A DNA stretch of 64,000 nucleotides from Mayamaea pseudoterrestris. Lineage: Eukaryota. How positions within the stretch are numbered: position 1 is the stretch's first letter; the number at the start of each line of letters is the position of its first letter. A program made the position numbers and the translations under genes. Below the pieces are notes generated by a model. The model had not been told where the DNA came from and searched no databases. It worked only from the letters and a program-made list of their open reading frames with translations. Shown one piece after another: positions 3,001 to 31,044 of this stretch. The stretch covers positions 1 to 64,000 of the forward strand of contig BROI01000004.1 of assembly GCA_027923505.1 (NCBI GenBank), read 5' to 3'.

Positions 3001-6000
3001 GAAGAATCTGCAACTTGTGGTGTTGGCCATACCCACAGTGGAGGCCGTACCCATGTTGTCAGCCTCCAGGCAGTCCTTTTTGCACCATTTGAGACTATGC
3101 ACCTGTCAATGGCATACCCTGGACATGTTTTGCTTGACTCATTGGGTATTTGGGTGGCCAGGGCATGGGGCGTTTGACAGGGAAGAATCTGCAACTTGTG
3201 GTGTTGGCCATACCCACAGTGGAGGCCGTACCCATGTTTTCAGCCTCCAGGCAGTCCTTTTTGCACCATTTGAGACTATGCACCTGTCAATGGCATACCC
3301 TGGACATGTTTTGCCTGACTCATTGGGTATTTGGGTGGCCAGGGCATGGGGCGTTTGACAGGGAAGAATCTGCAACTTGTGGTGTTGGCCATACCCACAG
3401 TGGAGGCCGTACCCATGTTGTCAGCCTCCAGGCAGTCCTTTTTGCACCATTTGAGACTATGCACCTGTCAATGGCATCCCCTGGACATGTTTTGCCTGAC
3501 TCATTGGGTATTTGGGTGGCCAGGGCATGGGGCGTTTGACAGGGAAGAATCTGCAACTTGTGGTGTTGGCCATACCCACAGTGGAGGCCGTACCCATGTT
3601 TTCAGCCTCCAGGCAGTCCTTTTTGCACCATTTGAGACTATGCACCTGTCAATGGCATCCCCTGGACATGTTTTGCCTGACTCATTGGGTATTTGGGTGG
3701 CCAGGGCATGGGGCGTTTGACAGGGAAGAATCTGCAACTTGTGGTGTTGGCCATACCCACAGTGGAGGCCGTACCCATGTTGTCAGCCTCCAGGCAGTCC
3801 TTTTTGCACCATTTGAGACTATGCACCTGTCAATGGCATACCCTGGACATGTTTTGCCTGACTCATTGGGTATTTGGGTGGCCAGGGCATGGGGCGTTTG
3901 ACAGGGAAGAATCTGCAACTTGTGGTGTTGGCCATACCCACAGTGGAGGCCGTACCCATGGTGTCAGCCTCCAGGCAGTCCTTTTTGCACCATTTGAGAC
4001 TATGCACCTGTCAATGGCATACCCTGGACATGTTTTGCCTGACTCATTGGGTATTTGGGTGGCCAGGGCATGGGGCGTTTGACAGGGAAGAATCTGCAAC
4101 TTGTGGTGTTGGCCATACCCACAGTGGAGGCCGTACCCATGTTTTCAGCCTCCAGGCAGTCCTTTTTGCACCATTTGAGACTATGCACCTGTCAATGGCA
4201 TACCCTGGACATGTTTTGCCTGACTCATTGGGTATTTGGGTGGCCAGGGCATGGGGCGTTTGACAGGGAAGAATCTGCAACTTGTGGTGTTGGCCATACC
4301 CACAGTGGAGGCCGTACCCATGTTGTCAGCCTCCAGGCAGTCCTTTTTGCACCATTTGAGACTATGCACCTGTCAATGGCATCCCCTGGACATGTTTTGC
4401 CTGACTCATTGGGTATTTGGGTGGCCAGGGCATGGGGCGTTTGACAGGGAAGAATCTGCAACTTGTGGTGTTGGCCATACCCACAGTGGAGGCCGTACCC
4501 ATGGTGTCAGCCTCCAGGCAGTCCTTTTTGCACCATTTGAGACTATGCACCTGTCAATGGCATACCCTGGACATGTTTTGCCACATGTTTTGCTTGACTC
4601 ATTGGGTATTTGGGTGGCCAGGGCATGGGGCGTTTGACAGGGAAGAATCTGCAACTTGTGGTGTTGGCCATACCCACAGTGGAGGCCGTACCCATGTTTT
4701 CAGCCTCCAGGCAGTCCTTTTTGCACCATTTGAGACTATGCACCTGTCAATGGCATACCCTGGACATGTTTTGCCTGACTCATTGGGTATTTGGGTGGCC
4801 AGGGCATGGGGCGTTTGACAGGGAAGAATCTGCAACTTGTGGTGTTGGCCATACCCACAGTGGAGGCCGTACCCATGTTGTCAGCCTCCAGGCAGTCCTT
4901 TTTGCACCATTTGAGACTATGCACCTGTCAATGGCATACCCTGGACATGTTTTGCCTGACTCATTGGGTATTTGGGTGGCCAGGGCATGGGGCGTTTGAC
5001 AGGGAAGAATCTGCAACTTGTGGTGTTGGCCATACCCACAGTGGAGGCCGTACCCATGGTGTCAGCCTCCAGGCAGTCCTTTTTGCACCATTTGAGACTA
5101 TGCACCTGTCAATGGCATACCCTGGACATGTTTTGCCTGACTCATTGGGTATTTGGGTGGCCAGGGCATGGGGCGTTTGACAGGGAAGAATCTGCAACTT
5201 GTGGTGTTGGCCATACCCACAGTGGAGGCCGTACCCATGTTTTCAGCCTCCAGGCAGTCCTTTTTGCACCATTTGAGACTATGCACCTGTCAATGGCATC
5301 CCCTGGACATGTTTTGCCTGACTCATTGGGTATTTGGGTGGCCAGGGCATGGGGCGTTTGACAGGGAAGAATCTGCAACTTGTGGTGTTGGCCATACCCA
5401 CAGTGGAGGCCGTACCCATGTTGTCAGCCTCCAGGCAGTCCTTTTTGCACCATTTGAGACTATGCACCTGTCAATGGCATACCCTGGACATGTTTTGCCT
5501 GACTCATTGGGTATTTGGGTGGCCAGGGCATGGGGCGTTTGACAGGGAAGAATCTGCAACTTGTGGTGTTGGCCATACCCACAGTGGAGGCCGTACCCAT
5601 GGTGTCAGCCTCCAGGCAGTCCTTTTTGCACCATTTGAGACTATGCACCTGTCAATGGCATCCCCTGGACATGTTTTGCCTGACTCATTGGGTATTTGGG
5701 TGGCCAGGGCATGGGGCGTTTGACAGGGAAGAATCTGCAACTTGTGGTGTTGGCCATACCCACAGTGGAGGCCGTACCCATGTTTTCAGCCTCCAGGCAG
5801 TCCTTTTTGCACCATTTGAGACTCTGCACCTGTCAATGGCATACCCTGGACATGTTTTGCCTGACTCATTGGGTATTTGGGTGGCCAGGGCATGGGGCGT
5901 TTGACAGGGAAGAATCTGCAACTTGTGGTGTTGGCCATACCCACAGTGGAGGCCGTACCCATGTTGTCAGCCTCCAGGCAGTCCTTTTTGCACCATTTGA

Positions 6001-9000
6001 GACTATGCACCTGTCAATGGCATACCCTGGACATGTTTTGCCTGACTCATTGGGTATTTGGGTGGCCAGGGCATGGGGCGTTTGACAGGGAAGAATCTGC
6101 AACTTGTGGTGTTGGCCATACCCACAGTGGAGGCCGTACCCATGGTGTCAGCCTCCAGGCAGTCCTTTTTGCACCATTTGAGACTATGCACCTGTCAATG
6201 GCATACCCTGGACATGTTTTGCCTGACTCATTGGGTATTTGGGTGGCCAGGGCATGGGGCGTTTGACATGGAAGAATCTGCAACTTGTGGTGTTGGCCAT
6301 ACCCACAGTGGAGGCCGTACCCATGTTTTCAGCCTCCAGGCAGTCCTTTTTGCACCATTTGAGACTCTGCACCTGTCAATGGCATCCCCTGGACATGTTT
6401 TGCCTGACTCATTGGGTATTTGGGTGGCCAGGGCATGGGGCGTTTGACAGGGATGAATCTGCAACTTGTGGTGTTGGCCATACCCACAGTGGAGGCCGTA
6501 CCCATGTTGTCAGCCTCCAGGCAGTCCTTTTTGCACCATTTGAGACTATGCACCTGTCAATGGCATACCCTGGACATGTTTTGCCTGACTCATTGGGTAT
6601 TTGGGTGGCCAGGGCATGGGGCGTTTGACAGGGAAGAATCTGCAACTTGTGGTGTTGGCCATACCCACAGTGGAGGCCGTACCCATGGTGTCAGCCTCCA
6701 GGCAGTCCTTTTTGCACCATTTGAGACTATGCACCTGTCAATGGCATACCCTGGACATGTTTTGCCTGACTCATTGGGTATTTGGGTGGCCAGGGCATGG
6801 GGCGTTTGACAGGGAAGAATCTGCAACTTGTGGTGTTGGCCATACCCACAGTGGAGGCCGTACCCATGTTTTCAGCCTCCAGGCAGTCCTTTTTGCACCA
6901 TTTGAGACTATGCACCTGTCAATGGCATACCCTGGACATGTTTTGCCTGACTCATTGGGTATTTGGGTGGCCAGGGCATGGGGCGTTTGACAGGGAAGAA
7001 TCTGCAACTTGTGGTGTTGGCCATACCCACAGTGGAGGCCGTACCCATGTTGTCAGCCTCCAGGCAGTCCTTTTTGCACCATTTGAGACTATGCACCTGT
7101 CAATGGCATCCCCTGGACATGTTTTGCCTGACTCATTGGGTATTTGGGTGGCCAGGGCATGGGGCGTTTGACAGGGAAGAATCTGCAACTTGTGGTGTTG
7201 GCCATACCCACAGTGGAGGCCGTACCCATGTTGTCAGCCTCCAGGCAGTCCTTTTTGCACCATTTGAGACTATGCACCTGTCAATGGCATACCCTGGACA
7301 TGTTTTGCCTGACTCATTGGGTATTTGGGTGGCCAGGGCATGGGGCGTTTGACAGGGAAGAATCTGCAACTTGTGGTGTTGGCCATACCCACAGTGGAGG
7401 CCGTACCCATGTTGTCAGCCTCCAGGCAGTCCTTTTTGCACCATTTGAGACTATGCACCTGTCAATGGCATCCCCTGGACATGTTTTGCCTGACTCATTG
7501 GGTATTTGGGTGGCCAGGGCATGGGGCGTTTGACAGGGAAGAATCTGCAACTTGTGGTGTTGGCCATACCCACAGTGGAGGCCGTACCCATGTTGTCAGC
7601 CTCCAGGCAGTCCTTTTTGCACCATTTGAGACTATGCACCTGTCAATGGCATACCCTGGACATGTTTTGCCCTGACTCATTGGGTATTTGGGTGGCCAGG
7701 GCATGGGGCGTTTGACAGGGAAGAATCTGCAACTTGTGGTGTTGGCCATACCCACAGTGGAGGCCGTACCCATGGTGTCAGCCTCCAGGCAGTCCTTTTT
7801 GCACCATTTGAGACTATGCACCTGTCAATGGCATACCCTGGACATGTTTTGCCTGACTCATTGGGTATTTGGGTGGCCAGGGCATGGGGCGTTTGACAGG
7901 GAAGAATCTGCAACTTGTGGTGTTGGCCATACCCACAGTGGAGGCCGTACCCATGTTTTCAGCCTCCAGGCAGTCCTTTTTGCACCATTTGAGACTCTGC
8001 ACCTGTCAATGGCATCCCCTGGACATGTTTTGCCTGACTCATTGGGTATTTGGGTGGCCAGGGCATGGGGCGTTTGACAGGGAAGAATCTGCAACTTGTG
8101 GTGTTGGCCATACCCACAGTGGAGGCCGTACCCATGTTGTCAGCCTCCAGGCAGTCCTTTTTGCACCATTTGAGACTATGCACCTGTCAATGGCATACCC
8201 TGGACATGTTTTGCCTGACTCATTGGGTATTTGGGTGGCCAGGGCATGGGGCGTTTGACAGGGAAGAATCTGCAACTTGTGGTGTTGGCCATACCCACAG
8301 TGGAGGCCGTACCCATGGTGTCAGCCTCCAGGCAGTCCTTTTTGCACCATTTGAGACTATGCACCTGTCAATGGCATACCCTGGACATGTTTTGCCTGAC
8401 TCATTGGGTATTTGGGTGGCCAGGGCATGGGGCGTTTGACAGGGAAGAATCTGCAACTTGTGGTGTTGGCCATACCCACAGTGGAGGCCGTACCCATGTT
8501 GTCAGCCTCCAGGCAGTCCTTTTTGCACCATTTGAGACTATGCACCTGTCAATGGCATCCCCTGGACATGTTTTGCCTGACTCATTGGGTATTTGGGTGG
8601 CCAGGGCATGGGGCGTTTGACAGGGAAGAATCTGCAACTTGTGGTGTTGGCCATACCCACAGTGGAGGCCGTACCCATGTTGTCAGCCTCCAGGCAGTCC
8701 TTTTTGCACCATTTGAGACTATGCACCTGTCAATGGCATACCCTGGACATGTTTTGCCTGACTCATTGGGTATTTGGGTGGCCAGGGCATGGGGCGTTTG
8801 ACAGGGAAGAATCTGCAACTTGTGGTGTTGGCCATACCCACAGTGGAGGCCGTACCCATGGTGTCAGCCTCCAGGCAGTCCTTTTTGCACCATTTGAGAC
8901 TATGCACCTGTCAATGGCATACCCTGGACATGTTTTGCCTGACTCATTGGGTATTTGGGTGGCCAGGGCATGGGGCGTTTGACAGGGAAGAATCTGCAAC

Positions 9001-11448
9001 TTGTGGTGTTGGCCATACCCACAGTGGAGGCCGTACCCATGTTTTCAGCCTCCAGGCAGTCCTTTTTGCACCATTTGAGACTCTGCACCTGTCAATGGCA
9101 TCCCCTGGACATGTTTTGCCTGACTCATTGGGTATTTGGGTGGCCAGGGCATGGGGCGTTTGACAGGGAAGAATCTGCAACTTGTGGTGTTGGCCATACC
9201 CACAGTGGAGGCCGTACCCATGTTGTCAGCCTCCAGGCAGTCCTTTTTGCACCATTTGAGACTATGCACCTGTCAATGGCATCCCCTGGACATGTTTTGC
9301 CTGACTCATTGGGTATTTGGGTGGCCAGGGCATGGGGCGTTTGACAGGGAAGAATCTGCAACTTGTGGTGTTGGCCATACCCACAGTGGAGGCCGTACCC
9401 ATGGTGTCAGCCTCCAGGCAGTCCTTTTTGCACCATTTGAGACTATGCACCTGTCAATGGCATACCCTGGACATGTTTTGCCTGACTCATTGGGTATTTG
9501 GGTGGCCAGGGCATGGGGCGTTTGACAGGGAAGAATCTGCAACTTGTGGTGTTGGCCATACCCACAGTGGAGGCCGTACCCATGTTTTCAGCCTCCAGGC
9601 AGTCCTTTTTGCACCATTTGAGACTCTGCACCTGTCAATGGCATACCCTGGACATGTTTTGCCTGACTCATTGGGTATTTGGGTGGCCAGGGCATGGGGC
9701 GTTTGACAGGGAAGAATCTGCAACTTGTGGTGTTGGCCATACCCACAGTGGAGGCCGTACCCATGTTGTCAGCCTCCAGGCAGTCCTTTTTGCACCATTT
9801 GAGACTATGCACCTGTCAATGGCATCCCCTGGACATGTTTTGCCTGACTCATTGGGTATTTGGGTGGCCAGGGCATGGGGCGTTTGACAGGGAAGAATCT
9901 GCAACTTGTGGTGTTGGCCATACCCACAGTGGAGGCCGTACCCATGGTGTCAGCCTCCAGGCAGTCCTTTTTGCACCATTTGAGACTATGCACCTGTCAA
10001 TGGCATACCCTGGACATGTTTTGCCTGACTCATTGGGTATTTGGGTGGCCAGGGCATGGGGCGTTTGACAGGGAAGAATCTGCAACTTGTGGTGTTGGCC
10101 ATACCCACAGTGGAGGCCGTACCCATGTTTTCAGCCTCCAGGCAGTCCTTTTTGCACCATTTGAGACTCTGCACCTGTCAATGGCATCCCCTGGACATGT
10201 TTTGCCTGACTCATTGGGTATTTGGGTGGCCAGGGCATGGGGCGTTTGACAGGGAAGAATCTGCAACTTGTGGTGTTGGCCATACCCACAGTGGAGGCCG
10301 TACCCATGTTGTCAGCCTCCAGGCAGTCCTTTTGCACCATTTGAGACTATGCACCTGTCAATGGCATACCCTGGACATGTTTTGCCTGACTCATTGGGTA
10401 TTTGGGTGGCCAGGGCATGGGGCGTTTGACAGGGAAGAATCTGCAACTTGTGGTGTTGGCCATACCCACAGTGGAGGCCGTACCCATGGTGTCAGCCTCC
10501 AGGCAGTCCTTTTTGCACCATTTGAGACTATGCACCTGTCAATGGCATACCCTGGACATGTTTTGCCTGACTCATTGGGTATTTGGGTGGCCAGGGCATG
10601 GGGCGTTTGACAGGGAAGAATCTGCAACTTGTGGTGTTGGCCATACCCACAGTGGAGGCCGTACCCATGGTGTCAGCCTCCAGGCAGTCCTTTTTGCACC
10701 ATTTGAGACTATGCACCTGTCAATGGCATACCCTGGACATGTTTTGCCTGACTCATTGGGTATTTGGGTGGCCAGGGCATGGGGCGTTTGACAGGGAAGA
10801 ATCTGCAACTTGTGGTGTTGGCCATACCCACAGTGGAGGCCGTACCCATGTTGTCAGCCTCCAGGCAGTCCTTTTTGCACCATTTGAGACTCTGCACCTG
10901 TCAATGGCATCCCCTGGACATGTTTTGCCTGACTCATTGGGTATTTGGGTGGCCAGGGCATGGGGCGTTTGACAGGGAAGAATCTGCAACTTGTGGTGTT
11001 GGCCATACCCACAGTGGAGGCCGTACCCATGTTGTCAGCCTCCAGGCAGTCCTTTTTGCACCATTTGAGACTATGCACCTGTCAATGGCCTACCCTGGAC
11101 ATGTTTTGCCTGACTCATTGGGTATTTGGGTGGCCAGGGCATGGGGCGTTTGACAGGGAAGAATCTGCAACTTGTGGTGTTGGCCATACCCACAGTGGAG
11201 GCCGTACCCATGGTGTCAGCCTCCAGGCAGTCCTTTTTGCACCATTTGAGACTATGCACCTGTCAATGGCATCCCCTGGACATGTTTTGCCTGACTCATT
11301 GGGTATTTGGGTGGCCAGGGCATGGGGCGTTTGACAGGGAAGAATCTGCAACTTGTGGTGTTGGCCATACCCACAGTGGAGGCCGTACCCATGGTGTCAG
11401 CCTCCAGGCAGTCCTTTTTGCACCATTTGAGACTATGCACCTGTCAAT
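1..11448. repeat. Tandem satellite array, 181-bp unit, about 63 copies, continuing past the left edge of the window
   Basis: The unit accatttgagactatgcacctgtcaatggcataccctggacatg...gcagtcctttttgc repeats head-to-tail with period 181, with only a few recurrent SNPs and rare indels. The last partial copy ends at ...ctgtcaat (11448). Confidence 0.99.
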
Positions 11449-12500
11449 TGCAACGACGAAAGCAGCGACAGGGTTTGACCAGCAAGATTCGAAGCCTCAC
11501 CACCAACATGTTGAACAAGAATTCGGGTTCCGCGGTAGTCAAGCAGCAGCGCGATCGGTTCGCCGAAGCCAACTTTGATACCGCTCCGCCGTCCATGATG
11601 CGGGCATCTTCGGGGCGAGACGCATACGGCGAAGGCGGCGGCGGTAGTGGCCACTACAGTCACTACGGTGACGCGCCGTACGGTCGACGGTTCAGCACGT
11701 CGCAAACGTCGTCGCAGGATATCATGCCACCGCCACCGCGGCGACAAGCGCGACGGGGCGATTTGGAAGAAACGTATGCAAGCAGCAAGAGTTTCAGTGG
11801 GTCTTTCAATTTACATAATAATAGTAATGATGCATGGTATGAAGACAATGGTGAATCGGATGAGCTTGCTGAACATGCGCAGCACGTTGCTTCTGTGGAT
11901 GAGGACGAGGACGACGGCGGCATGCTGGCTATTTTGCAGAGGCAGCTGCTGGCGAAAGCGGCGGTCGAAGCGCAGCAGCGGCATGAACAACAAGCAACAC
12001 TACACGCGTATCCAACGATGAGGCCCATGGATCCAAATGGGCAAGCAGGCATTTCCATGGGAATGGACGCGATTGGAGCAATGCGAAATCTACATTTAGG
12101 ACCGCCGCAAGTTCAGCCCCAACCATACTTTGAAACATACCATGCCGTCATGCCGAGTGCACCGATTGCATCAATAGCAGCGCAGTTGGATAGAATGCAA
12201 GTGGATGCAGCGGCCATGCAGCCGACGCCATTGCCACCTTCATTCAATGGCGGCGCCCAAGCTCAAACGTACGCGCAGCCATCGCAAATACAGCCGGTAG
12301 GCTCGTTCGAAGTTCCCACATTCAAGTCACGCGCGAGCGGCCGCTTCTCCAGTATAGGTGAGCTAGAAGACGGGCAACTTGAGACTCTTTTGACCGGATT
12401 GGATGTAAGTTTATCCGATTTGAACTTTGACGATGCGCAGCAACAGCAGCAGCAACAACAGCAACAACACCACTACCAACAACGGCACGCGCAAGTATAG
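11449..12500 (+). CDS. Low-complexity Q/S/G-rich hypothetical protein, possibly 5'-truncated by the satellite (first in-frame ATG at 11508)
   Basis: The frame is open from the satellite junction to TAG at 12498-12500 (about 350 codons). It has a poly-Q C-terminus and is followed by an AT-rich 3' region. Confidence 0.65.
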
Positions 12501-16141: not shown

Positions 16142-16811
16142 GCAATGATTTGGTCACATGTTATCTTGATAGTGTGCTTGGTTTTTGTTGTTGATGTGCT
16201 GTGATGATGATCATATGATCCAAGCTGTCTATCGGTTCAATTTGGTTATTATGTGTGAGATGTAGGAAGACCGGTGGAGTTGGCTATCACTTGAAAGGAG
16301 CTTAACATTCGATAAGCCATATAAGTGTATTTCTTGCTAAATTACACATGTGCGGCCTTCCATTAGCTCCCTAGTAAACTTGCACTAGTTAATAATCAAA
16401 TGTCAAATGCATGCGTTTCGAAACGTCGTGACGGTTTTGCAGTACGACGCCGCGTAAAAAAGCCAACGGCATTGCGGCGTTTATAATAGTAACTCATCAA
16501 AGAGTTCTTTAGTCATACACATGGCAATGGGCCTTGTAAGTTATTATAAAAGACGGACCAGTCATTGACAATTGTGCCAATCAGACCAAACAGATCAGCC
16601 TACGGAAAGCATCCCGTTGGGCACTGTCCCAAACTTGAGGTACAATTGTTATAGTCTACTTCAACAAATGTATCTGCAGAAACAGGATCCTGAGGGTACT
16701 CGTATGCTGACTAATATTTACCGTTAATCGCACAGAGGAAGTTGACAGAATGCTATTCTCCTCTTACAAATAGACGTGCGGCAGGCTTACATTCCATCGA
16801 GTGGTGTCTCG

Positions 16812-19800
16812 TTACGCCAGGCTAATCAGCATTTCAGCATCAAGCCCTCGTATGTTATCAAACAATAGTCGGATAATCATTCGTCCACCCTCCGCTCCAC
16901 CATCGGCATTAGCCCTATTCCAATCAAACTCGACCGTTCGGACTACATCGAATTTCCCCAACCTGTCGATTCGGATTGACGACTGTCCCAAAAGCATCTT
17001 TTGGTGATAGCTACCAAGAAGAATCGTCAAGGAAACTTCATTGTCGGCCTTGTCTCGTTGGCGTTCCATCTGTAAATGCATTTCAAGCTTGCCGACTGCC
17101 TTTCCGGTCACCTTATTGATATGATGAGAGACCGCACACTTATTCAAGTTGACGAGTGGCAATCTAAAAAGGGTGGTGATGGCCACATCAACTCTCTTCT
17201 TGTCCAAACGCGTCAATTGTGAAATGGTATTCACAGCAGTTGCACGTGGCATCGCGCGAATTTCTCGTAAAGAAATGGTATGGTTGCTGGTCTTCTGCTT
17301 GTTTACCGTAAGCTCAGGAGCACCAACTAGGAGCAACACGGGGTCGCTCTGTGGTGTACTTTTGGTTGCAACGAATTGTCGCGTCCGAGAAAATTGCGTC
17401 AGCAACTCGAAGCTGCCTGGCTGCTCCTTGTCCTGGCCAGCGATAAACTCCATCGCCGCTAGCAGACGGGGTATATTGTCGACCACGCTCATTGTATCGT
17501 TCACGTAGTCGGTGATCGGAAGCTTGGCACGCTGCAAATAGGCTTGCACAAGCAAAAAGCATTTTGTGTGAGGATCTTGGAAGATCTCAACATTGTAACT
17601 TCGCCGACCGGAAAGCAGCATCGTCATGTCTGGGCCCCACATGAGACTACGGCTTAGCTCCTCGTTTAAATGCTCCTCATTATGGCGGACAGGGTGTTCG
17701 TCAAACTCATGTGTGGAACAGAGCGTGTACAACAGCCATCCGGATGCAACTTCGTCGATGCCTGGCGAGCGTTCAAATGAACTCAAAGTCGTTTTAAGGG
17801 AGTCGCTGACTTTGGAATTTGTTTCTTCTTCAAGGTATTTCAGAACAATGCGTCGGCCTTCTTTGACGCCAAACTGCATTTGTTTTGGTGTGCGATGGCT
17901 GAGATAATAACTCGCAGCTGCAATAGACAATGGAGTAGACTTAACCTGGGCAGTGTCGTCGTTTGGCTGAGTAACGATGCAGCCGCTCTCGTCAAGTTGG
18001 GCCAGCGTGTCTTTTACAGTGGAAAAGAGAAACTCTTCGACGTCATCGTCGTCGGATGACTTGGCGCCATAATAAGATGGGTTGGCTTTTACCCGGCGCG
18101 CAAAAAATGTCCACGACAGATAACCCAGCGCATCCACCGTCGTTGATATCGTCCCACTTGCAATTTCAGCATTAATGTTTTCGCATAATTTTTCTTGTAG
18201 ACACGACTCCACTGGGAACGAGGTATACTACGTAAAATTGACACGCAAGGGTTAGTATGTAAACATGTGTGCGCTCACAGCAAGCAGAGAAACGTTCGCT
18301 CACCAAAAACTTCTTATAAAAATTCTTCTTGTCTTCAGTAGCCATTACCACCGCGAATGCTTGCGTATCAAATCCTGGCCTGCCAGCGCGACCAATCATC
18401 TGCAAAACATCAGTCAAGGGATAATCTACGTAACGCGAAGACTTCCCATCAAAATATTCGGTTCCTTTAACAATGCATAATCGTCCGGGCAAATTCAGGC
18501 CCCAGGCAAGGGTACTATGTACAGGATGAGAGTATTGTAGATCAGCGCAAGAAGTCACTCGGCAAACGATGACACTATAAATGACTTACGCAGTTGCGAC
18601 CAAAACACGAATCCGACCTTCTAAAAACAATCGCTCAACAACCTCTCGATCAGCAGAAGTAAGGCCCGCATGATGCAAACCGATGCCAAACGTCAGCGTA
18701 TGGCGTAGTGACTCGTCGCGGATATTCTCGGCAACCGATTCGATGTAGTCTTGGCTACAGTCCAGAAAGGACATAGGCTGTTCATCACTAGCTGCATAGC
18801 TAATTAAATCAATCGCCGTGAGACGAGTCTGGCGACGCGAAGCAACAAATATAAGAGTTGGTTTCGTCGGAGCATAGTCCTTTATAGCCGCATAGCAAGG
18901 CTTGTTCATCGTTGCCATTCTGGGGCAATAATGCTTGCCGGAAAATCCCTGAACGTGCACCGCGATGGGTATCGGCCTAACATATTGAGAGAAATTGAAC
19001 AGACCTTGTCGGTTGCTCGTACACGTACTTTCTGTCTCAATGCCAATCCAAGCGCCTAAATCGACGGCGTTCGCGAGGGACGTGGAAAGCCCGACAATAC
19101 GTGTTTCTTCCTCGCCCTTCGGCCCTTTCGATTGTTGCAGCGTTCGAGAAATAAACCGGGTCCTACTAACAATGGCTTCGAGGACAGCTCCTCTTTCTTC
19201 GCCGAGCAAGTGCACTTTAACGAATAGAAAAGATTGAATTAGATGCAATACTGGTGATCACTAGTCCATAGTCGACACTAGCTTACCTTCGTCTATCACG
19301 AGAAGGCCCACACGTTTCACGAACGATTTTTCCTTAACGGCGTCCCCCGTTTGAAAACCTCGCCATCCGCGTGAGAGAAGATCCCATTTTTCAGGTGTGC
19401 ATACTAGCACATCCGATCGTTCCAGCCGTGACAAATCATGATGCGTATCACCCGACAATTCCAAGACGTTCCAGTTAAGGGGTGGCGCACCAAGTCGTCG
19501 CTGCCAATCCTTCAGTCTCTCTCGGGCAAGCGCCTTTAGTGGAGCAATGTAAACGCAGATGCTTGAGGGTCGGAGTTTCTTCATTCGGAGAAGAGCTAAC
19601 TCTGCGACGATTGTCTTGCCACTTCCTGTTGGCGCACCCAGCAGAACGGGAGAATCCGTATGGTAGAGAACATGAAACAATTGCGTCTGAATCGGGTTAA
19701 ATGCATGAAACGGATACAATTTTTCATAAGCAGCATTTTGTAAAGCCGACGTCGGAAGGGGAGTCAAGTCTTGAAGCTTCGTCAACACTTCATCTTGCTT

Positions 19801-22800
19801 GGGTAACTGAGATTCTTCAATAGAGATAGGTACAACCTGCTCAACACCGACCCACGAGTCGGATATGATCTTTACCACAAATTGGCCTGACTCGCCAAAA
19901 ATTGGTGCCATGGCATCAATCGCAAATGAGCTTGCACTCTTTGCTTTTGTCAGTGTGAACTGCTCATGGTGGTAGATGCGCTTACTCTCAGTGTTCTCGA
20001 TCCAGAACCAAAATGATTGTCCGCCCCCATGCCATCGTCCATGCCAAACAAACGCCGGCGACAATGTGACGTGGAATTTGAGTATACTACCTGTTACAGG
20101 CAACACACGACACTCCACCTCAAATTGAGGAAGCATACGGATCAAACTTTGTACTTTCTCGCCACCTTTGTTCCAATGACAAAGGCTACCAACCTCATTT
20201 GGGTGCAGGTCGAGCAAAGACGTGACTGACGCAAGCCCACTGTATTCGGAGCTGACGGCCTTTTCGAGATGTAGAAGCGCATTATCGCGAATCTCGCCTT
20301 CAAACTGTCGTAATGGTGTTTGAAACCACCAGATTCGATTATCAACGCTCTTCGCAATCCGTAACAGTTTCATTGCTGACCCAGCATCACCTTGCTTGAG
20401 ACACATCTCAAAAAGCGCCCGCGCGATACGTCCAGCGTTCGCCGAGATATAATTAACGTCTGATATGAGTGTAAAACTAGTTATCCGTTCCTTTGATATG
20501 TAGGCCTGAATAAGCAGGAAGGCCTTGTCTGTGGCACTAGTAACGAGGCCTCTGCCCCGATCATCAAGTCCAGCACCTCTAATCTCCAAGGGACAATTGC
20601 CAGCAATCTTCTCAAGTTCCTCCAGTTCTTCTTGCCGCACTTTCATATTCTGAAACTCGCTAGCCGATGCAATGGTGTGAACAAGGGATGCATTCGAAAG
20701 ATTTTTGTTACTTCCCATCTGTTCATTAAACGTCGCCACACTCTCAGATTGAACGTAAAAGTGAGCGGCTGTTCGTCCCATTTCTCTGGCAGACAAATTG
20801 CCGGATGCTTGTGCATAGGCGATCATCTTAGTGGCACTAAGATGCTTCGCGGCATGCACGATGAGCTCGCGGCGGCGAGACACAAGCGTTGGATCATCAT
20901 TCTTCTCCTCGGGTTTGATTCCATACGCCAGAGGATTGCCAAGCATTCTGATATGCAGGTACGTGTATCCAAGCCATTGCACGGCTTCTTGTATGGTCGA
21001 CACGGTTCCACCCACAATCTCTGCGTTCAAATGATCTGGAAGTTGTTTGATAAAGTTTGACTCGATTGGGACGGCACGGACAAGTTTTGTTATATATCGC
21101 TGATAAGCGTCATACGACGTTATTAAAGTTGCTTCACCTGAAGAGTCAAACTGCGGTCGACCAGCTCGTCCAAAAATTTGTTGCACATCCAAAATCGATA
21201 GATCGACGGCGCCACCCTTCTCAGGGTTGTACACTTCTGTTCCTTTTATTATCACCCTGTTGTACAGCAAGAGTGACGCTGTTGTGAGAATCAAGTTCCG
21301 CTATTGTGTAGTATAAAACAAATACAGCACCAATATTCCTACGTGTGCGCCGGAAGATTAATTCCCCATGCTAGCGTCTAGTCGATGAAGTGATAAGTAG
21401 GGTTAGTGCACGCTTTTACGAGAAGATGCACGACATCCAACGAAAACTTACGCTGTCATTTCAGAAACCGAGCGAGTACGGCGACGAATGTAAGTGCACG
21501 AATGGAAAACCAATAAACACAAGCGTATAATCACTATTTTTTGCATGGCTTACGCTGTGCAGCATAGGACTTTTATGGCACCGTCGCTAAACATGTTCTC
21601 CGTCAGCTTGCGGTCGCCACGCAACATTCCAGCATGGTGAATTCCCATACCATTCTGGAAATGTATGGCTACTTGACGGTCCCTCGACTTGATCACCTTG
21701 TCCTTGTATCTACTATATGCATCTCCGGCAACACCGTCCTTCCCAGCTGTGACGAAATGACTTTCGAGAGCGCCATCTGCTGCAGCGAGATCCGCCAACG
21801 CGCGCGCCGTATCACCAGTACCCTTTCTTGAATGCACAAATACCATTACTTGATAGCCACGACGTAGCGAATCAATGACGATGTCATAGCAAATCTCATT
21901 CATTTTTAAATCCCTTTGCCTTCGATCCTTCGTTGAGATCCCAATCATTGATTGTTGCAAAGGCACCGGGCGAAATTCAGGCCCAAAGAAAAAGATTCCT
22001 CGAGGAGGCACTTGAAGAAAGTTCGCGACATCCATATAATTCGGCAGTGTTGCCGACAAGGCCACAATTCGAAGTTGGCGCTGACGCGCTTCCACGAGCC
22101 TGTGATGTCGAGCCACTACGGACTCAATGACAGCGCCTCGATCATCCGCTAGCAAATGGACCTGAGCCGTAGGGCAGGGGGCGTCAGCGATGATGAAACA
22201 CTCACAACACAAATAACAATGGAAACTATTGTCATCGTACCTCGTCAATAATCAAGAGACCACACTGATTGCCGAGCGAAAGTTCATCCGTGCCGGACTT
22301 GCGCGTCACAACATCCCATTTTTCGGGAGTTGTGACAATGACATTGGCCGACTCTGCTTCGGCCCGGGTCAGTTGCATGTCGCCCGTTAGTTCGCGCACG
22401 ATGAGCCGCAACGATTTCAGCTTGGAGGAAAACTTTTCGACAACTTCCTGCGCCAATGCCTTCATTGGTGCAATGTAGACAACCTTGCGTCCAGTCTCCA
22501 TAATGGTTTGGTTGCTCGCTGACGCGCCTGGAAGCAACCCAACGTCTCGAAAATGCGAGACTACCGTCAACATTGCCACGTTCGTTTTCCCAGCTCCCGT
22601 GGGCGCACACACAAGCATGTTTTCACGGCCCCAAAAGGCAACGTCAAAGACTGTTGATTGCATCGGATTGAGTGTTTCCGTACCGTCAAACGCGCGCTGG
22701 CAGGCTTCGTCCATTACTTCACGAATCTTGAGACGGTCCGGTAGCTTTGACTCATCTCGACGAGCAGCTGGAATGATAACCTTTTCGTAGCCACTCCCCT

Positions 22801-23689
22801 TTTCAAATATTGTTCCAAACGGCAACCCCTTATCGTTGTAGTATTGCTTGGCACCACTTGCCAGCAGCGAATCCTGCAGTGCCTCCAAATCATTTGTCGA
22901 TTTCTTCATCAAGCCCCCCGGTCCTCGCTCCTGCAAGTCAAGTTTCCAAAAGATTTCATCGTCAAGAATGGCACCTTGCTCCTTGGCGCGAGCCAATGCT
23001 TGCGCCGCCTTTTTCTCGAGTCGCTCCACCTGCTTGACGGCGTCGCGATTGGATTGTCGAACCACCGAGTGCGTCAGCGTTTCTGATGAGTTACTATATA
23101 AATTGGCGTTCTCCAGCTCCTGTCGTGCCAGCTCGGCCAGTTGCGCCGCTTCCCTGGCTTCCTGCAGCAAAAATTGTCGCTTTTCTTCCTCCAAGTCAAG
23201 GTAGACTGAATCGGATGCAATAATATTGCCATTTTGCACTGCTGCATCTCCCGATACTAGTTCGTCTCGCCGCATGTTACGAGCAATCTCCCGCATCACT
23301 GGCATGATCTCCAACAAGACTGCCATGGCCTGATCGGACGACCCAAGCACGTCAAAGAGGGCAGCCTGCTGCGACGCTTCGTCGAGTGATTCGTTCGTTG
23401 CCACGTCGAAAATGCACTCGGCCAAGTAGTTGGCACCCAATGCGGATGATACAGTGGAACAATGTTTCAGCAGCCATGATGCATTGATGAGTGATGTTGA
23501 GGAGGCTGGATAATCTTGCAATGGTGAAGATGCTTCGTTGAATGATTCTCTTGACGCATGAGACGACTTTAGAATGGGCAGAGCGTCACGTAATGCGACG
23601 GCGAGGTCAACAAAAGCTGACTGCACCTTTGCATCACATACAGGTGCTTTCTTCTTGTTGGAACAAAGACCTTTGAGGAAGGCTTCCAT
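16812..23689 (-). CDS. ASCC3: ASCC3/Slh1 tandem Ski2-like helicase. Proposed exons: 23689-22241, 22161-21554, 21452, 21377-21343, 21256-19287, 19214-18590, 18514-18304, 18227-16812
   Basis: Two helicase cassettes (APTGAGKT and [23 protein letters not shown]), Sec63 domains and the ASCC3-type [11 protein letters not shown]. The GT-AG introns I read restore the frame. Confidence 0.9.
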
Positions 23690-24097
23690 ATTATAGATTA
23701 GAAAGCGTGGGTTGCTAATGGTCGTCAGTCGTCGAGGCTTGTCGAGGCTCGAGAGGCAGGTCGAAAGGTTTTCGAGTGTGGTGGCAACGCCTTTTTCAAC
23801 CTTTACCAAACACCACAGTAAGTCAATGTCACTCTTGGACCAGATCAGCCGGCTTTCAACTCAGTCTCTTGATCCCGTACGGTAGCAAGCTGGGATGACG
23901 AGTGATGGCTCGCACGTTTCGCGGCGGCGAGGAATGCCAGACACGCTGCGACTTTTTAGAACTGCTGCGACAATAATTCACGCAACCGCGCCGACGCAAC
24001 GGAAAATGCGCCTTCATCGAGGAACCGATTCAGAATCATGGCAGCAGCAGCGTCGTCTTCATCTTCCATCGCACCACTGTCTCTTACTGTCTTGATC

Positions 24098-25393
24098 ATG
24101 TCTAATTGGAAGAATGAACATTCGTTTGGAACGCCGCCTCCAGCTCCAATAGGCAGCATGTGCGCTTTATTTGGTGCGGCGCCGGCTCCTCCCCTCTTTG
24201 GCGAAACATCTGCAGCTCCGCACAGTTTTGGCGGGTTTGGAGGAGGCCATTGATTCTCGGCGTCATCTGGAGGATTTGGATTCCCGTCGGCGACGTCTGG
24301 AGCATTTGGAGCGCCGGCTCCAGCTCCAAGTGGCAGCTTTTTTTGTACAACGCCAGCTCCAAGCAGCTTATTTGGTGCGGCGCCAGCTCCTTCACTCTTT
24401 GGCGAAACATCCGCAGCTCCGCACAGCTTTGGCGGGTTTGGAGGAGACCATGGATTCTCGACGACCTCTGGAGGATTTGGAGCGCCGCTGGCGACTTCTG
24501 GAGGATTTGGGTTTGAAATGCAGCCTTTTCTCTCGGCTTTTGGAGCGCCGTTGGCGACATCTGGAGGATTTGGTTTTGGAACGCAGCCTGGTTTCTCGGC
24601 TTTTGGAGCGCCGTCGGCGACATCTGGAGGATTTGGGTTTGGAACGCAGCCTGGTACGTCGCTAAATTGGATGGGCGGATTTTCCGGGGCTACGGCAGCT
24701 TTTGGAGCGTTGCAGCAGCCGCAGCCACACATACCTTTCATTGGACGTAAGAAAGATCCAGCTCACCGCTTTGACCTGCCTCGCTCGCCTTTTCCTTTCG
24801 CGACAGCTCCCGCTTCGCATGAGTCAGCCGGATTTGGAACCGCGCCGTCCTTTGGTTTTCCGCCGGCCGCCGCAACTGGCTTTGCGCCACCTGCTTTTGG
24901 ATCGAATAGCTTTTCTTTCGCTTCAATTCAAGCTGCAGCTGCAGCTGCCTTTCGAGCCCCCACTTGCCGCAACAATTCAGTCGTCCCAACGTCAAAGACG
25001 GGCGGCAGCAACTCGGTCCTTGTCGGACATCTTGCGCAGGAAATTGTTGATCGCATCAACAAGCTCGAGTACAATGACTGGAAGGAGAAGGTCTTTGGCT
25101 ACTTTAGCCGCAAGTCGATCCAGGCGCAGTCGGATTCGAACATGATGGATGAAGACTTTGGAGACAAGTTGCTCGCTCTTCTGAAGCATTTGGAAGTGCT
25201 TGCCAAGATCTCCGTCTTGAAGCTGGTGGTGTGGAAGGCCAAGTGTCGTTTGCACTCGAGCGACGAAAACGCCGACCCGCTTGGCGCCGTCATGTGGTAC
25301 AGTAAGGGATGGAAAAAAGTCAAGCAGCATTACGTTGACGACGCGGCGATTGAAACGGTTGCGAAACTCATTCGGCCATGGCTCGGGGAGTAA
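24098..25393 (+). pseudogene. FG-repeat-rich protein with a conserved C-terminal domain, interrupted by one in-frame TGA (24251-24253)
   Basis: ATG 24098 is in frame with the 24518-25393 ORF. CAT TGA TTC corresponds to CAT GGA TTC in the internal repeat 201 bp downstream. Paralog of 25984-26853. Confidence 0.65.
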
Positions 25394-26853: not shown

Positions 26854-27306
26854 ATGATTCTAGACGGGAGCAACTGAAGAGACGGAGAGTGATCCAGTGT
26901 TTGTCGAGTTGAGTAGAGTAGTTTTCGAACGACCATTACTTACTGTAATTCTACTACTGTGATAACAAGATTTAATGATTGAAAAACGCCATATACTCCT
27001 AGCATTTTCGTGCGCGACGTTTCGTTTCATGCTAAGCGCCTTCGGCGCAGCTCTCCTTGCAATAACATACAATACAGTGAGCTAGTTTCCGTAATGAAAA
27101 AGCTGCGGGATTATATCCCGCGAACATGCAGCGATTGGCATACCGGCAGCTAGTCAACCGATGCGACTCGGGAACGAGTTCATTAGGGTCATGGTTGACG
27201 TGGATGCATGATGGATTCGCATCATCCGTTCGACCAAGCATATATTCACCATGAGATCTTGCGCGATTCCTTGTAGCTTCACGCACCTTTAAACCTACGT
27301 TACGTA

Positions 27307-30300
27307 ATGGAATTACAATCTACATTAAACCTTTACAAGTGGAAGCGAAAGCGGCGGTATCTCGTTAATTGCGCGTGGAGAAGTTTGGGAATCTGGCAAA
27401 CCATCATTGCCGTCATGTTTCTTCTCGGCATGTCGCAACGAAGCACCTTCTTTGTCAAAGGGTTTATGATTAAAAGCAACTTTAATCAAAGACATGAACG
27501 AGCATCAGTGCTCCTGACGGCTGTCGCCGCGAGAAAGGCGTCCAAGAAAGCCACGAAACCCACAATAGTAGCATCGGACACTACCTCCTTGCCCTATCGA
27601 CTCGTCATTGTCGAGTCACCCTCCAAGTGCAAAACAATCGACAAGATTCTGAACGAATATGTGCAAACAAACAATCTTGCATTCAGCTATCAAGTGACAT
27701 CATGCTACGGCCATGTGAGGGATCTCAGCAAGGAAAAAATTCCACCGAGCGACTCTGCAGCCTTTCCCTATACTGTTCCTGGCATTGACCTTTCCCATCA
27801 TCAATTTAAACCACTCTACCAAATCATTGAAAAGAAGAAACATATTGTCAAAGAGCTGCGTCAGCTTGCGAGCAAGGCGGAAAAGGTATTGCTCGCGACG
27901 GATCCGGATCGTGAAGGTGAAGCGATTGCATGGCACTTGAATGAAATATTACAGACTGATAGTATTGATGATGCTGGACGCTTACCGACTGAGCGCGTCT
28001 CATTCACCGAAATTACTCCATCTGCTGTTTTGGACGCAGTCATACCGACGCACGAGAATGATGCAGCTAGTTCTGCCGAACATAGTAACCTCCGGCGAAT
28101 CAATCCACACTTGGTCACGGCCCAGGAAACGCGGCGATTACTGGATCGACTCGTTGGATTTACACTGAGTCCGATTCTTTGGCGCAAGATTGCGCCCGGC
28201 TTGTCGGCGGGTCGCGTGCAGTCGGTGGGCATGGCGCTCGTGGTAAATCGCGAGCGAGAGCGATTGCGGTTTGAAGCAACTGAGTATTGGGACTTGGAAG
28301 CGAAATTATTGGTGGCGACAGAGTCGCATAATGAGCAGAGTAATTCAATCAAGGCAAAGCTAGTGTCTGTGAATGGACAATATGTGGCGTCGGAAGGAAA
28401 AGACTTTACTGCCCAAGGAAGACAACTTGTCTCGGCCGAGAAACTGCACTTGAACGTGGATGAGGCGCACTCGTTGGCAAACAAACTATCCAACGCCACT
28501 TGGGTCATCAAGGAGGTTACATCGAAACAGGTGCGTATGCAGCCTCCGAAACCATATCGAACCAGCACGCTGCAGCAGGATGCGAATCGCCGGCTATCGC
28601 TCAGTGTTGACCAGACAATGCGAGTGGCGCAACAGCTCTACGAAGCCGGGTACATTAGCTACATGCGGACAGACTCGAGCACCTTGTCAAGTCAAGCAGA
28701 GGAAGCCATCGAGTTGTCAGTGGAAGAAGTGTTTGGCTCTACTGAATACGATGCATCGATACGTGGCAAGGGCATTGGACATGTCAAATCGTCGCAAAAT
28801 GTCAGCTTTGCGCAAGAGGCCCATGAGGCTATCCGCCCAGCCGTCCAACCAGGAGGTATCTTGGCAGCGCCAGAACTTTTGATGGGTCAAGTCGACGATG
28901 TTGCATTAAAATTGTATCGCATGATTTACCAGCGCACATTGGCCAGTCGCATGCAGCCTTTGTTAACGCTTCGCACCCGAATTGCCATTGAAACTACTGA
29001 ATATGGGGGTGTCACTGCGGAGTTTCGTGCAACTGGTAGCGTCATTGTCAAACCTGGTTATTCAGCAGCTTATGCAGCAAGTAAAATAGACGAGGAGGCG
29101 GAGGGCGATAAACAGCAGCTGCCTCATCTAAAAGAAGGTCAAGTCATGACGTTAGAAACTGTTTTGCCGATTGACCACGCCACACAACCTCCACCACGAT
29201 TCAATGAAGCCAGCTTTGTCAAGGAGCTTGAAGCTCTTGGCGTGGGTCGTCCAAGCACTTATGCGAGCACCGTAAAGACTCTGCGCGAGCGAGCCTACGT
29301 GGGAACCCCTCTTAAAGAAAATAGCCGCCGAATCAGTTTCAGAAAGGAACCTTCGGGCATGTCTAAAGTAGCTCAACGAGCTGCCGGTGGCGAGGATTTT
29401 ACAGGAGCAGCTCAAGGTCCACTGGTGCCATCTCTTTCCGCGTTTGTCGTCAGTGACCTTTTAGAGAAGCACTGTTCAATTATCATTGATTCCGGGTTCA
29501 CTGCAAATATGGAAGAGCAACTGGATTGGATCGCATCGGGCGACAAACCGAGCGAGTACAGTGTCCAGTACCTGAATGACTTTTATACTGGCGACGAAGG
29601 TTTGGCAGCACGTGTGAAACGGATTGATGAGGCGGTAGATGCGGACGACGCGCGCCGTGTTGATCTCCCAGCTCTTGAACCTACCGATTTTGCATCGTCA
29701 GGCGACGACATTGCACTGTGTGTCGGGCCTTGGGGGCCTTTCGTCAAGCTTGTTGACAATAACGACAGCAGCAATGCAACGACAGTGTCATTACCGCCAG
29801 GAATGGCTGCTGACCTCACTTTAATATCCCCTGAGGCTTTGCGATCTATTGTCGCCACCAAGCTGGCTGGAGGATTAGTGCTCGGCCAGCATCCATCGGA
29901 CGGACGCAACATTCGGTTAAAGACGGGTCGATACGGAGCTTTCTTACAATGGGGTGAGGATAACGAAGAGGGCACGACAACCCACTCTTTGCCAAAAAGT
30001 ATAGCAAGCATGCGTACCTTTGATTCGTTCACAGATGACGTTGAAGCTGATAGCGAGGAGAACGCTGGATTGTTTGCTCAGCGACTTGGGGTCACTTACG
30101 ATCATGCGGTCGGCTACGTGGAGCTTCCACGTACTGTTTGCTTCTTGAATGATAAACCCATCGTCGCGGCAATCGGCCCGTATGGTCCCTATTTGAAGTA
30201 CAACAATTCTTATACAAGCTTAAAAGCCACAGACGGGGACGTACTCAATGTTGATCCAGCTACAGCGGAACAGTTGGTCATCGAACGAATAGTAAACGGT

Positions 30301-31044
30301 AAACCTAAGGGCGCTATAGCTGATCTAGGTGAAAAGGATGGAAGCCCAGTAACAGTAAAGAGAGGGCGGTTTGGCAATTACTTGAATTGGAAGCGAGTCA
30401 ATGCCAAGCTACCTTCAGAATACCAGGACGAGCCATCGAGCATGCCACTTGAAGAAGCGTGGGTGCTGATACAGGCTGCTTCGGGTGGATCCAAAGGTAA
30501 GAAAAGCACGTCAAAGATAGCAAAGTCTTCTCCAGAACTCCCGCCAGCTCCAAAGCGCCCAATGTCGGCATATTTACACTTTTGCGCCGCGAAGCGCCCG
30601 GAAATTAAAAGCACTGTGTCTTCGCTGGGAGATGCTGCAAAGGCGCTGGCAGCTCTTTGGGCCGCAGCTTCGGAGACCGAGCGCGAAACCTACATTAAAT
30701 TAGCAGCTGCGGGAAAGGTCGAGTACGAAAAAACAAAGGAAAACTGGCAGAAGGAGTGTCAAGAGATTCTTGACAAGTCAAAAGCTGCCAAGCCAACTGG
30801 GAAACAGCGAAAGATAGCTGTCATCAAGAAAGCTCCGCCTTTGCTTTCGAAAAAGGCGAAATCAGCCTACCTATTCTTCTGCGCAGAGAAGCGCCCCCAA
30901 GTTGCAGCGCAATTCTCGGGGTTGGGCGCCGTGACCAAAGAACTCGCTCGTCAATGGGCAGAAACTTCCGATCGAAGCAAATACGAAGCGCTCGCACAAG
31001 TGGCCAAGGAGTCACATGCCACGGAGAATGTGTTGCAAACATGA
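27307..31044 (+). CDS. topA: Bacterial-type DNA topoisomerase IA with TopA C-terminal repeats and two C-terminal HMG boxes, probably organelle-targeted
   Basis: LVIVESPSK, ATDPDREGEAIAWH, SAGRVQS, active-site GYISYMRTDS, AQEAHEAIRP, GRPSTYA; GRYG/GPYG/GRFG repeats; HMG boxes PKRPMSAYLHF...W and KAKSAYLFF...W. Confidence 0.93.
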   Translation: MELQSTLNLYKWKRKRRYLVNCAWRSLGIWQTIIAVMFLLGMSQRSTFFVKGFMIKSNFNQRHERASVLLTAVAARKASKKATKPTIVASDTTSLPYRLVIVESPSKCKTIDKILNEYVQTNNLAFSYQVTSCYGHVRDLSKEKIPPSDSAAFPYTVPGIDLSHHQFKPLYQIIEKKKHIVKELRQLASKAEKVLLATDPDREGEAIAWHLNEILQTDSIDDAGRLPTERVSFTEITPSAVLDAVIPTHENDAASSAEHSNLRRINPHLVTAQETRRLLDRLVGFTLSPILWRKIAPGLSAGRVQSVGMALVVNRERERLRFEATEYWDLEAKLLVATESHNEQSNSIKAKLVSVNGQYVASEGKDFTAQGRQLVSAEKLHLNVDEAHSLANKLSNATWVIKEVTSKQVRMQPPKPYRTSTLQQDANRRLSLSVDQTMRVAQQLYEAGYISYMRTDSSTLSSQAEEAIELSVEEVFGSTEYDASIRGKGIGHVKSSQNVSFAQEAHEAIRPAVQPGGILAAPELLMGQVDDVALKLYRMIYQRTLASRMQPLLTLRTRIAIETTEYGGVTAEFRATGSVIVKPGYSAAYAASKIDEEAEGDKQQLPHLKEGQVMTLETVLPIDHATQPPPRFNEASFVKELEALGVGRPSTYASTVKTLRERAYVGTPLKENSRRISFRKEPSGMSKVAQRAAGGEDFTGAAQGPLVPSLSAFVVSDLLEKHCSIIIDSGFTANMEEQLDWIASGDKPSEYSVQYLNDFYTGDEGLAARVKRIDEAVDADDARRVDLPALEPTDFASSGDDIALCVGPWGPFVKLVDNNDSSNATTVSLPPGMAADLTLISPEALRSIVATKLAGGLVLGQHPSDGRNIRLKTGRYGAFLQWGEDNEEGTTTHSLPKSIASMRTFDSFTDDVEADSEENAGLFAQRLGVTYDHAVGYVELPRTVCFLNDKPIVAAIGPYGPYLKYNNSYTSLKATDGDVLNVDPATAEQLVIERIVNGKPKGAIADLGEKDGSPVTVKRGRFGNYLNWKRVNAKLPSEYQDEPSSMPLEEAWVLIQAASGGSKGKKSTSKIAKSSPELPPAPKRPMSAYLHFCAAKRPEIKSTVSSLGDAAKALAALWAAASETERETYIKLAAAGKVEYEKTKENWQKECQEILDKSKAAKPTGKQRKIAVIKKAPPLLSKKAKSAYLFFCAEKRPQVAAQFSGLGAVTKELARQWAETSDRSKYEALAQVAKESHATENVLQT

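Follow-up and report, generated by a model that had tools for sequence, protein, structure and literature searches.

The first 64,000 nucleotides (nt) of contig BROI01000004.1, read on the forward strand (the window), carry on the minus strand a long helicase gene that is judged to be of the ASCC3 type. An interval of 176 nt (21553-21378) separates two of its exons, and a single C at position 21452 divides this interval into two apparent introns of 101 and 74 nt. The defining features tested for a spliceosomal one-nucleotide exon are all present at 21452. It is proposed, with a probability of about 0.88, that C21452 is a constitutive one-nucleotide internal exon of this diatom gene. The features of the gene are the following.

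16812..23689, minus strand: ASCC3-type gene (putative assignment); ATG at 23689, stop codon ending at 16812; eight exons; coding sequence (CDS) of 6315 nt (2104 codons plus stop)
22240-22162, minus strand: intron of 79 nt, joint seen in RNA
21554..22161, minus strand: exon 2, 608 nt; ends TGC ACA GC, the last two letters being the first two bases of an Ala codon; translation 100% identical to the public model P0121
21453..21553, minus strand: intron A, 101 nt, gtaagcc...tgacag; absent from the RNA contigs of runs X4 and X5
21452, minus strand: proposed one-nucleotide exon, C on the coding strand and G on the plus strand; third base of the Ala codon GCC; AG/C/GTAAGT; in the X4 and X5 contigs
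21412, minus strand: alternative candidate C, aaaag/C/gtgcac; same mRNA through introns of 141 and 34 nt
21378..21451, minus strand: intron B, 74 nt, gtaagtt...cgactag
21343..21377, minus strand: exon after intron B, 35 nt; 11 residues plus the first two bases of the next Thr codon
21257..21342, minus strand: next intron, 86 nt, gtagga...aacag
19286-19215, minus strand: intron of 72 nt, joint seen in RNA
18515..18589, minus strand: intron of cassette 2 at the paralogous codon position, 75 nt, GC/gtaagtc...acatag/T ACC; spliced in RNA contigs
18303-18228, minus strand: intron of 76 nt, joint seen in RNA

The helicase gene and its public annotation

The CDS was assembled by exon coordinates, with every splice joint taken from RNA contigs. 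It contains a single, terminal stop when the C is included, and a stop at codon 688 when it is left out. At the site, the product shows no gap in its alignment with P0003 from an intron-poor relative (69% identity over 1642 columns). It is likewise gapless there, and colinear, in comparison with the full-length diatom proteins P0004 and P0023 (2084 and 2121 residues). Most named relatives are called 'activating signal cointegrator complex subunit 3' or plant 'DExH14', and some bear the names of U5 snRNP helicases. The assignment to ASCC3 over Brr2/SNRNP200 is putative and was made from the names of the protein matches. The exon of 35 nt (21343..21377) presumably encodes helicase motif V.

The nearest named proteins are two 'hypothetical proteins' of Mayamaea pseudoterrestris, a raphid pennate diatom. 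P0121 (686 residues) is 100% identical over exon 2 and ends ...KVLCCTA, its model reading GCG TAA through the donor of intron A. P0001 (1409 residues) is 98% identical over the large exon and lies on another contig. It begins MTAVIIKG..., with a start inside the next intron (21257..21342), and probably represents the other haplotype. M. pseudoterrestris is reported to be diploid with 2.97% heterogeneity (PMC9724779). Pfam detects in both half-models together two DEAD, two Sec63, two wHTH and one Helicase_C domain. This is the architecture of a tandem-cassette Ski2-like helicase, with two cassettes of DEAD, winged helix and Sec63 in a colinear joined frame. The Helicase_C domain of cassette 1 is cut by the annotation break and goes undetected in both half-models.

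The public annotation thus splits the gene in two at this very site, and the exons of 1 and 35 nt are absent from both models. The proposed one-nucleotide exon is regarded as the reason for this broken model. A helicase gene of 2104 codons has become models of 686 and 1409 residues, and motif V is lost. That gene finders overlook one-nucleotide exons had been stated in a first-pass annotation of the window, made from the sequence alone, and is exemplified here. Similar hidden breaks may exist in other diatom genes in which an 'intron' has about twice the usual length.

The single C and its rival sources

The upstream exon, read on the minus strand, ends ...TGCACAGC (TGC ACA GC) at 21554 and is followed by gtaagcc. 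The coding letters before this donor are AAA GTC CTA TGC TGC ACA GC. The downstream exon starts at 21377, after tag (21380-21378), with ACGCTAGCA (ACG CTA GCA TGG). It reads in full ACG CTA GCA TGG GGA ATT AAT CTT CCG GCG CAC AC and is followed by gtagga from 21342. Direct joining of both exons shifts the frame to ...CCTAR and then a stop, which lies two codons on. Addition of one C yields GC-C-ACG and restores CTATLAWG. The early stop and the restored motif had both been predicted, and the translation bears them out.

C21452 stands in the context gacag/C/gtaagt (21456-21447 reads acag C gtaag) and leaves 101 nt (21553-21453) on its upstream side and 74 nt (21451-21378) on its downstream side. 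The donors are GTAAGC for intron A and GTAAGT for intron B, and the acceptors are CAG and TAG, respectively. Branch-like motifs occur at 21496-21490 (cacttac) and 21408-21402 (cactaac). The A residues at 21491 and 21403, putative branch points to judge from these CTNAC-type motifs, are located 38 and 25 nt before the respective 3' ends, compared with approximately 22-32 nt in the other introns as judged by eye. The coordinates and letters given in the first-pass annotation for the exon ends, the AG-C-GT, the interval lengths and the branch-like motifs were all correct. Its statement that both halves match the other introns of the gene applies to the 74 nt, which fall within the range of the other five introns (72, 75, 76, 79 and 86 nt); the 101 nt are somewhat longer.

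Five public sequencing runs from two studies cover 19300-23800, and none is recorded as RNA. Four of them (X1, X2, X4 and X5) were aligned to 16500-24100. X1 and X2 are DNA-like, with contigs that run unspliced through introns, e.g. 19826-21353. X4 and X5 were classed as RNA from their spliced contigs. They represent two samples of one study, which also includes X2, and share with X2 the coded organism label B. Contigs of X4 and X5 are joined over six intervals of the gene, all of them GT..AG on the coding strand; intron coordinates were derived from the contig joints after correction for the stated cut offsets. At the site, both runs join 21554 to 21377. The 176 nt of 21378-21553 are skipped, and one letter, G on the plus strand, stands between the exons. 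The X5 contig lies on the plus strand and the X4 contig on the minus strand. G is reported in both orientations, so the letter is given on the plus strand and the mRNA letter is C. Since 21553 is g, a coding-strand G would simply have lengthened the exon in the alignment. The predicted RNA, ...TGCACAGCCACGCTAGCA..., is matched exactly in the spliced contigs of X4 and X5. A contig of 1898 nt from X5 spans the joint at the site together with two neighboring joints. The depth of the bin 21326-21579 (2.98 in X4 and 1.92 in X5) equals the level expected from its 61 exonic letters alone. Contigs with a retained intron or a direct join were not found in X4 and X5; contigs drop rare forms, so that this does not imply their absence.

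The bases adjoining the exons are not C but g, at 21553 and at 21378. The C must consequently stem from inside the interval and not from a shifted donor or acceptor. A shift of either splice site by one base was considered and is ruled out by the inserted letter together with the length of the skip. A GC donor two bases upstream that drops the Ala codon, named beforehand as a possible refutation, is excluded as well: it would skip 178 bases and leave no letter between the exons.

A base missing from the assembly at an exon edge had been named as the other possible refutation. In that case the genome of the RNA strain would carry an extra base at the edge, as an assembly error or a strain difference, and a single intron of 176 nt would be removed. 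The window derives from one assembly only, and the label of the RNA runs (organism B) differs from that of the best DNA run (organism A), which leaves some room for such a difference. The extra base would have to be a C beside g21553 or g21378, and the DNA-like contigs of X1 and X2 over the interval show no insertion or deletion of one base at 21553/21554 or 21377/21378. The nearest such difference is an insertion of 6 nt behind 21378 (TGCCGG, plus strand), present in a fraction of the depth in X1 as well as in X2. Situated just within the 3' end of intron B, it changes the acceptor from tag/ACG to cag/ACG and probably marks a second haplotype. In the nearest named species, the two public models likewise break here, as expected if its genome reads like the window. 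An extra edge base is considered extremely improbable.

Least probable of all the explanations is the removal of a single intron together with an untemplated C, which insertional RNA editing would have added or contig assembly would have introduced as an artefact. No specific support for it was found, although the RNA evidence consists of contigs only. The identical letter appears in two runs from two samples, and a templated C with consensus splice sites is present in the interval. To our knowledge, insertional editing does not occur in nuclear mRNAs of the diatom group.

The interval contains two AG-C-GT sites only, 21452 and 21412, the second of which had escaped the first-pass annotation. 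C21412 (aaaag/C/gtgcac) as the one-letter exon would yield an identical mRNA through introns of 141 and 34 nt, and the RNA contigs are compatible with either position. Its donor GTGCAC is poor compared with the consensus GTAAGT at 21451. The downstream intron would measure 34 nt, with cactaac beginning 4 nt past the donor, against 72-101 nt in the seven introns of the model with C21452. As far as we know, spliceosomal introns of such a size are confined to a few lineages. Chance occurrence was estimated from 20,000 shuffles of the 176-nt interval. A bare AG-N-GT, as at 21412, arose in 43% of them, and AG-N-GTRAG in 0.97%, or in 0.26% with both halves of at least 60 nt. The site at 21412 is therefore at chance level and the site at 21452 is not. 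Seven other AG-N-GTAAG sites were found in the window, and all resemble ordinary exon ends. C21412 is regarded as a very improbable source of the letter.

Several points weigh against C21452 as the exon. The pyrimidine tract of intron A is weak, and its branch motif is rather distant (38 nt). The RNA evidence consists of assembled contigs instead of raw reads, comes from one study and derives from runs that are not recorded as RNA. These contigs cannot distinguish C21452 from C21412. X1 is possibly the source sample of the window assembly and is then not a fully independent proof of the genomic sequence. Comparative support is absent, as 0 of 51 related loci have an intron at the codon of the site.

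Intron positions in relatives and in the second cassette

Related loci were collected from metagenome contigs. Among 78 loci, 51 aligned over the site at more than 55% identity; the remaining 27 were left aside for insufficient length, truncation or an identity under 55%. Some of the 51 may represent cDNA-derived contigs. All 51 contain the Thr-Ala-Thr codons without interruption (Thr-Ser-Thr in L046), and three of them (L003, L007 and L016) read ACA GCC ACG as does the mRNA of the window. As far as sampled, the feature appears to be lineage-specific. Nine of the 51 loci are interrupted two to five codons downstream, in at least four different places that all fall within the eight codons following the site, and those nine at least are genomic. 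The following interruptions were read from tblastn alignments.

L010-L013 and L034: TGG G/gtaag
L020: GGA/gtaagt
L021: TGG/gtaggt
L008: TTA G/gtaag

These alignments suggest that the region coding for motif V bears introns at shifting positions among diatoms, the position of the window being found in none of the other loci. In L002, at approximately 2880-3100, tblastn alignment indicates two apparent interruptions; they seem to enclose a microexon that encodes GVNL in about 12 nt, and TG/GCAAGT is a possible GC donor.

Two open reading frames, P0002 and P0003, show 72% identity to the gene over the large exon and 81-83% over exon 2. They run through six of the seven intron places of the window and end reading into the seventh, after KKFL. 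They look like genomic DNA without those six introns.

The intron of cassette 2 that the first-pass annotation had placed at the same phase-2 position (GC/T ACC) is present at 18589-18515 and is spliced in RNA. In motif V, both cassette 1 (21553-21378) and cassette 2 (18589-18515) are hence interrupted at GC/N of the Ala codon. A second paralogous pair follows the DE of the DExH motif, where the intron has phase 0 in cassette 1 (22240-22162) and phase 1 in cassette 2 (19286-19215), one base apart. The introns at paralogous places are not alike in sequence, and P0002 and P0003 run through all four of these places. Interruptions near DE/VH were also observed in L011 and L066.

In view of this pattern, introns A and B may have been gained separately and recently in the lineage of the window, one base apart, at the exact paralogue of the intron position in cassette 2; this scenario is considered unlikely. 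If true, it would point to a sequence-directed intron gain, in which similar coding sequence attracts, e.g., reverse splicing or repair-mediated insertion and the one-letter exon arises as a by-product. Relatives that lack both introns make the site a datable case of intron gain. Gain in the lineage of the window and loss in the relatives are both possible.

A tandem duplication was considered on the basis of ACAGCGTAAG at both donors, 102 nt apart, and of CGTGCACT[T/A]AC in both introns. It was not supported: the local alignment of intron A with intron B scored 17 (z 1.4), and 31 of 300 shuffles scored as well. A simple duplication would in addition require an in-frame direct join, which is absent. 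A search for an introner or repeat family compared the seven introns with the window and the 78 loci and returned only chance words of 10-16 nt, a weak test in view of this limited scope.

Elsewhere in the window, a tandem satellite with a unit of 181 base pairs (bp) occupies the first 11.4 kilobases (kb; 1-11452, 63.2 copies, 98% matches), and the flat composition of this part is due to it. An uninterrupted frame of 1255 codons on the plus strand (27277-31044) resembles by eye a type IA topoisomerase with a lysine-rich tail. Two donor-like sites six bases apart (AGC/GTAAGA/GTAAGT) at 39445-39425 on the minus strand are possibly alternative donors of another gene.

Splicing of the paired introns and known one-nucleotide exons

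The mature RNA lacks two complete GT-AG introns but retains the single base that separates them. In introns of 70-100 nt the spliceosome pairs the splice sites across the intron, and exon length is not limiting. In an organism with short introns such as this, each intron would be recognized across itself (intron definition). An exon of 1 nt would then need no exon-definition signals, the RNA of the neighboring intron serving each spliceosome as the flanking 'exon'. When intron A is removed, the downstream 'exon' would consist of the C and the beginning of intron B; when intron B is removed, the upstream 'exon' would consist of the last part of intron A plus the C. U1 pairs with donor positions -3 to +6. 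Both introns are probably removed one after the other, since the 3' AG of intron A lies within the U1-paired stretch of the intron B donor. Such a process would resemble recursive splicing, except that one base is left. Folding of the RNA (21562-21370) gave -41.2 kcal/mol (z +0.41), and 127 of 200 shuffles folded as well, so that no structure joining the sites is indicated.

The site differs from a recursive splice site, i.e. a zero-nucleotide exon, in that AG and GT are separated by one base, which the RNA retains. At Drosophila ratchet points, a 3' AG beside a 5' GTAAGT subdivides very long introns, and no base is left behind. Here as there, overlapping sequence would be used by two sequential splicing reactions, whereas at 21452 one base is kept and both introns are short. 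A stwintron is an intron nested in the splice signal of another, the outer intron becoming functional only after the first excision. Introns A and B differ from it in that GT, branch-like motif and AG are uninterrupted in both and separate for each of them. The overlapping splice sites provide a natural substrate for asking in which order they are used.

One-nucleotide exons are rare but already known, and have been documented repeatedly since 2015. The first demonstration, for APC11 of Arabidopsis, relied on cDNA sequences and on substitution of the base (Guo and Liu, 2015; PMC4674806). According to that report, it is a single base in an annotated intron, flanked by AG and GT, essential for the frame, constitutive and missed by annotation, and the clue was a cDNA letter that is not contiguous in the genome (PMC4674806). 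All these traits recur at C21452. In contrast, the APC11 exon is described as an A within an interval of 422 nt in a small RING gene, proven by base mutation and cDNA (PMC4674806). It is also reported as conserved across land plants (PMC8831610), while the diatom exon is supported by RNA contigs only and its position is shared by 0 of 51 loci.

A plant-wide study confirmed APC11 and added VPS55; both exons were described as conserved in land plants and as overlooked by annotations (Yu et al., 2022; PMC8831610). The remark of the first-pass annotation on one-nucleotide exons in plants agrees with these two reports. The VPS55 exon resembles C21452 in its length of 1 nt and in the strong GTRAGT donor directly behind it, and its absence from annotation likewise led to wrong proteins (PMC8831610). 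It is reported to be conserved from bryophytes to flowering plants and to be alternatively used in some lineages (PMC8831610). Unlike VPS55, the diatom gene shows no alternative form, which contigs could miss.

In fungi, a one-nucleotide exon has been reported in Fusarium CYP621A, where an 'intron' of 139 nt contrasted with a median of 56 (Nelson and Syed, 2026; PMC12940212). The likeness consists in an over-long 'intron' with an internal AG-N-GT in a conserved motif (PMC12940212). The support given for CYP621A comprises SRA reads and an intronless relative (PMC12940212). Its exon is the middle base of a Gly codon in 20 Fusarium orthologues (PMC12940212), whereas C21452 occupies the synonymous third position of an Ala codon and is confined to one lineage as sampled. 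A long-read annotation of Coprinopsis cinerea lists 13 one-nucleotide exons in 13 genes (PMC12230235). As in the diatom gene, such exons recur there in a genome with short introns, and their omission results in premature stops (PMC12230235). The Coprinopsis data form a genome-wide basidiomycete catalogue (PMC12230235), different in scope from the single gene described here. A 1-bp exon has also been reported in placozoan mitochondrial cox1, which is organellar and involves a different kind of splicing (PMC5436844).

No one-nucleotide exon from a diatom was found in the literature, in a search that left subscription journals largely outside, and C21452 is probably the first to be noted in this group. 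With it, the known range, so far land plants and fungi, comes to include a diatom (stramenopile), which suggests that exons of 1 nt can be handled by any spliceosome using intron definition.

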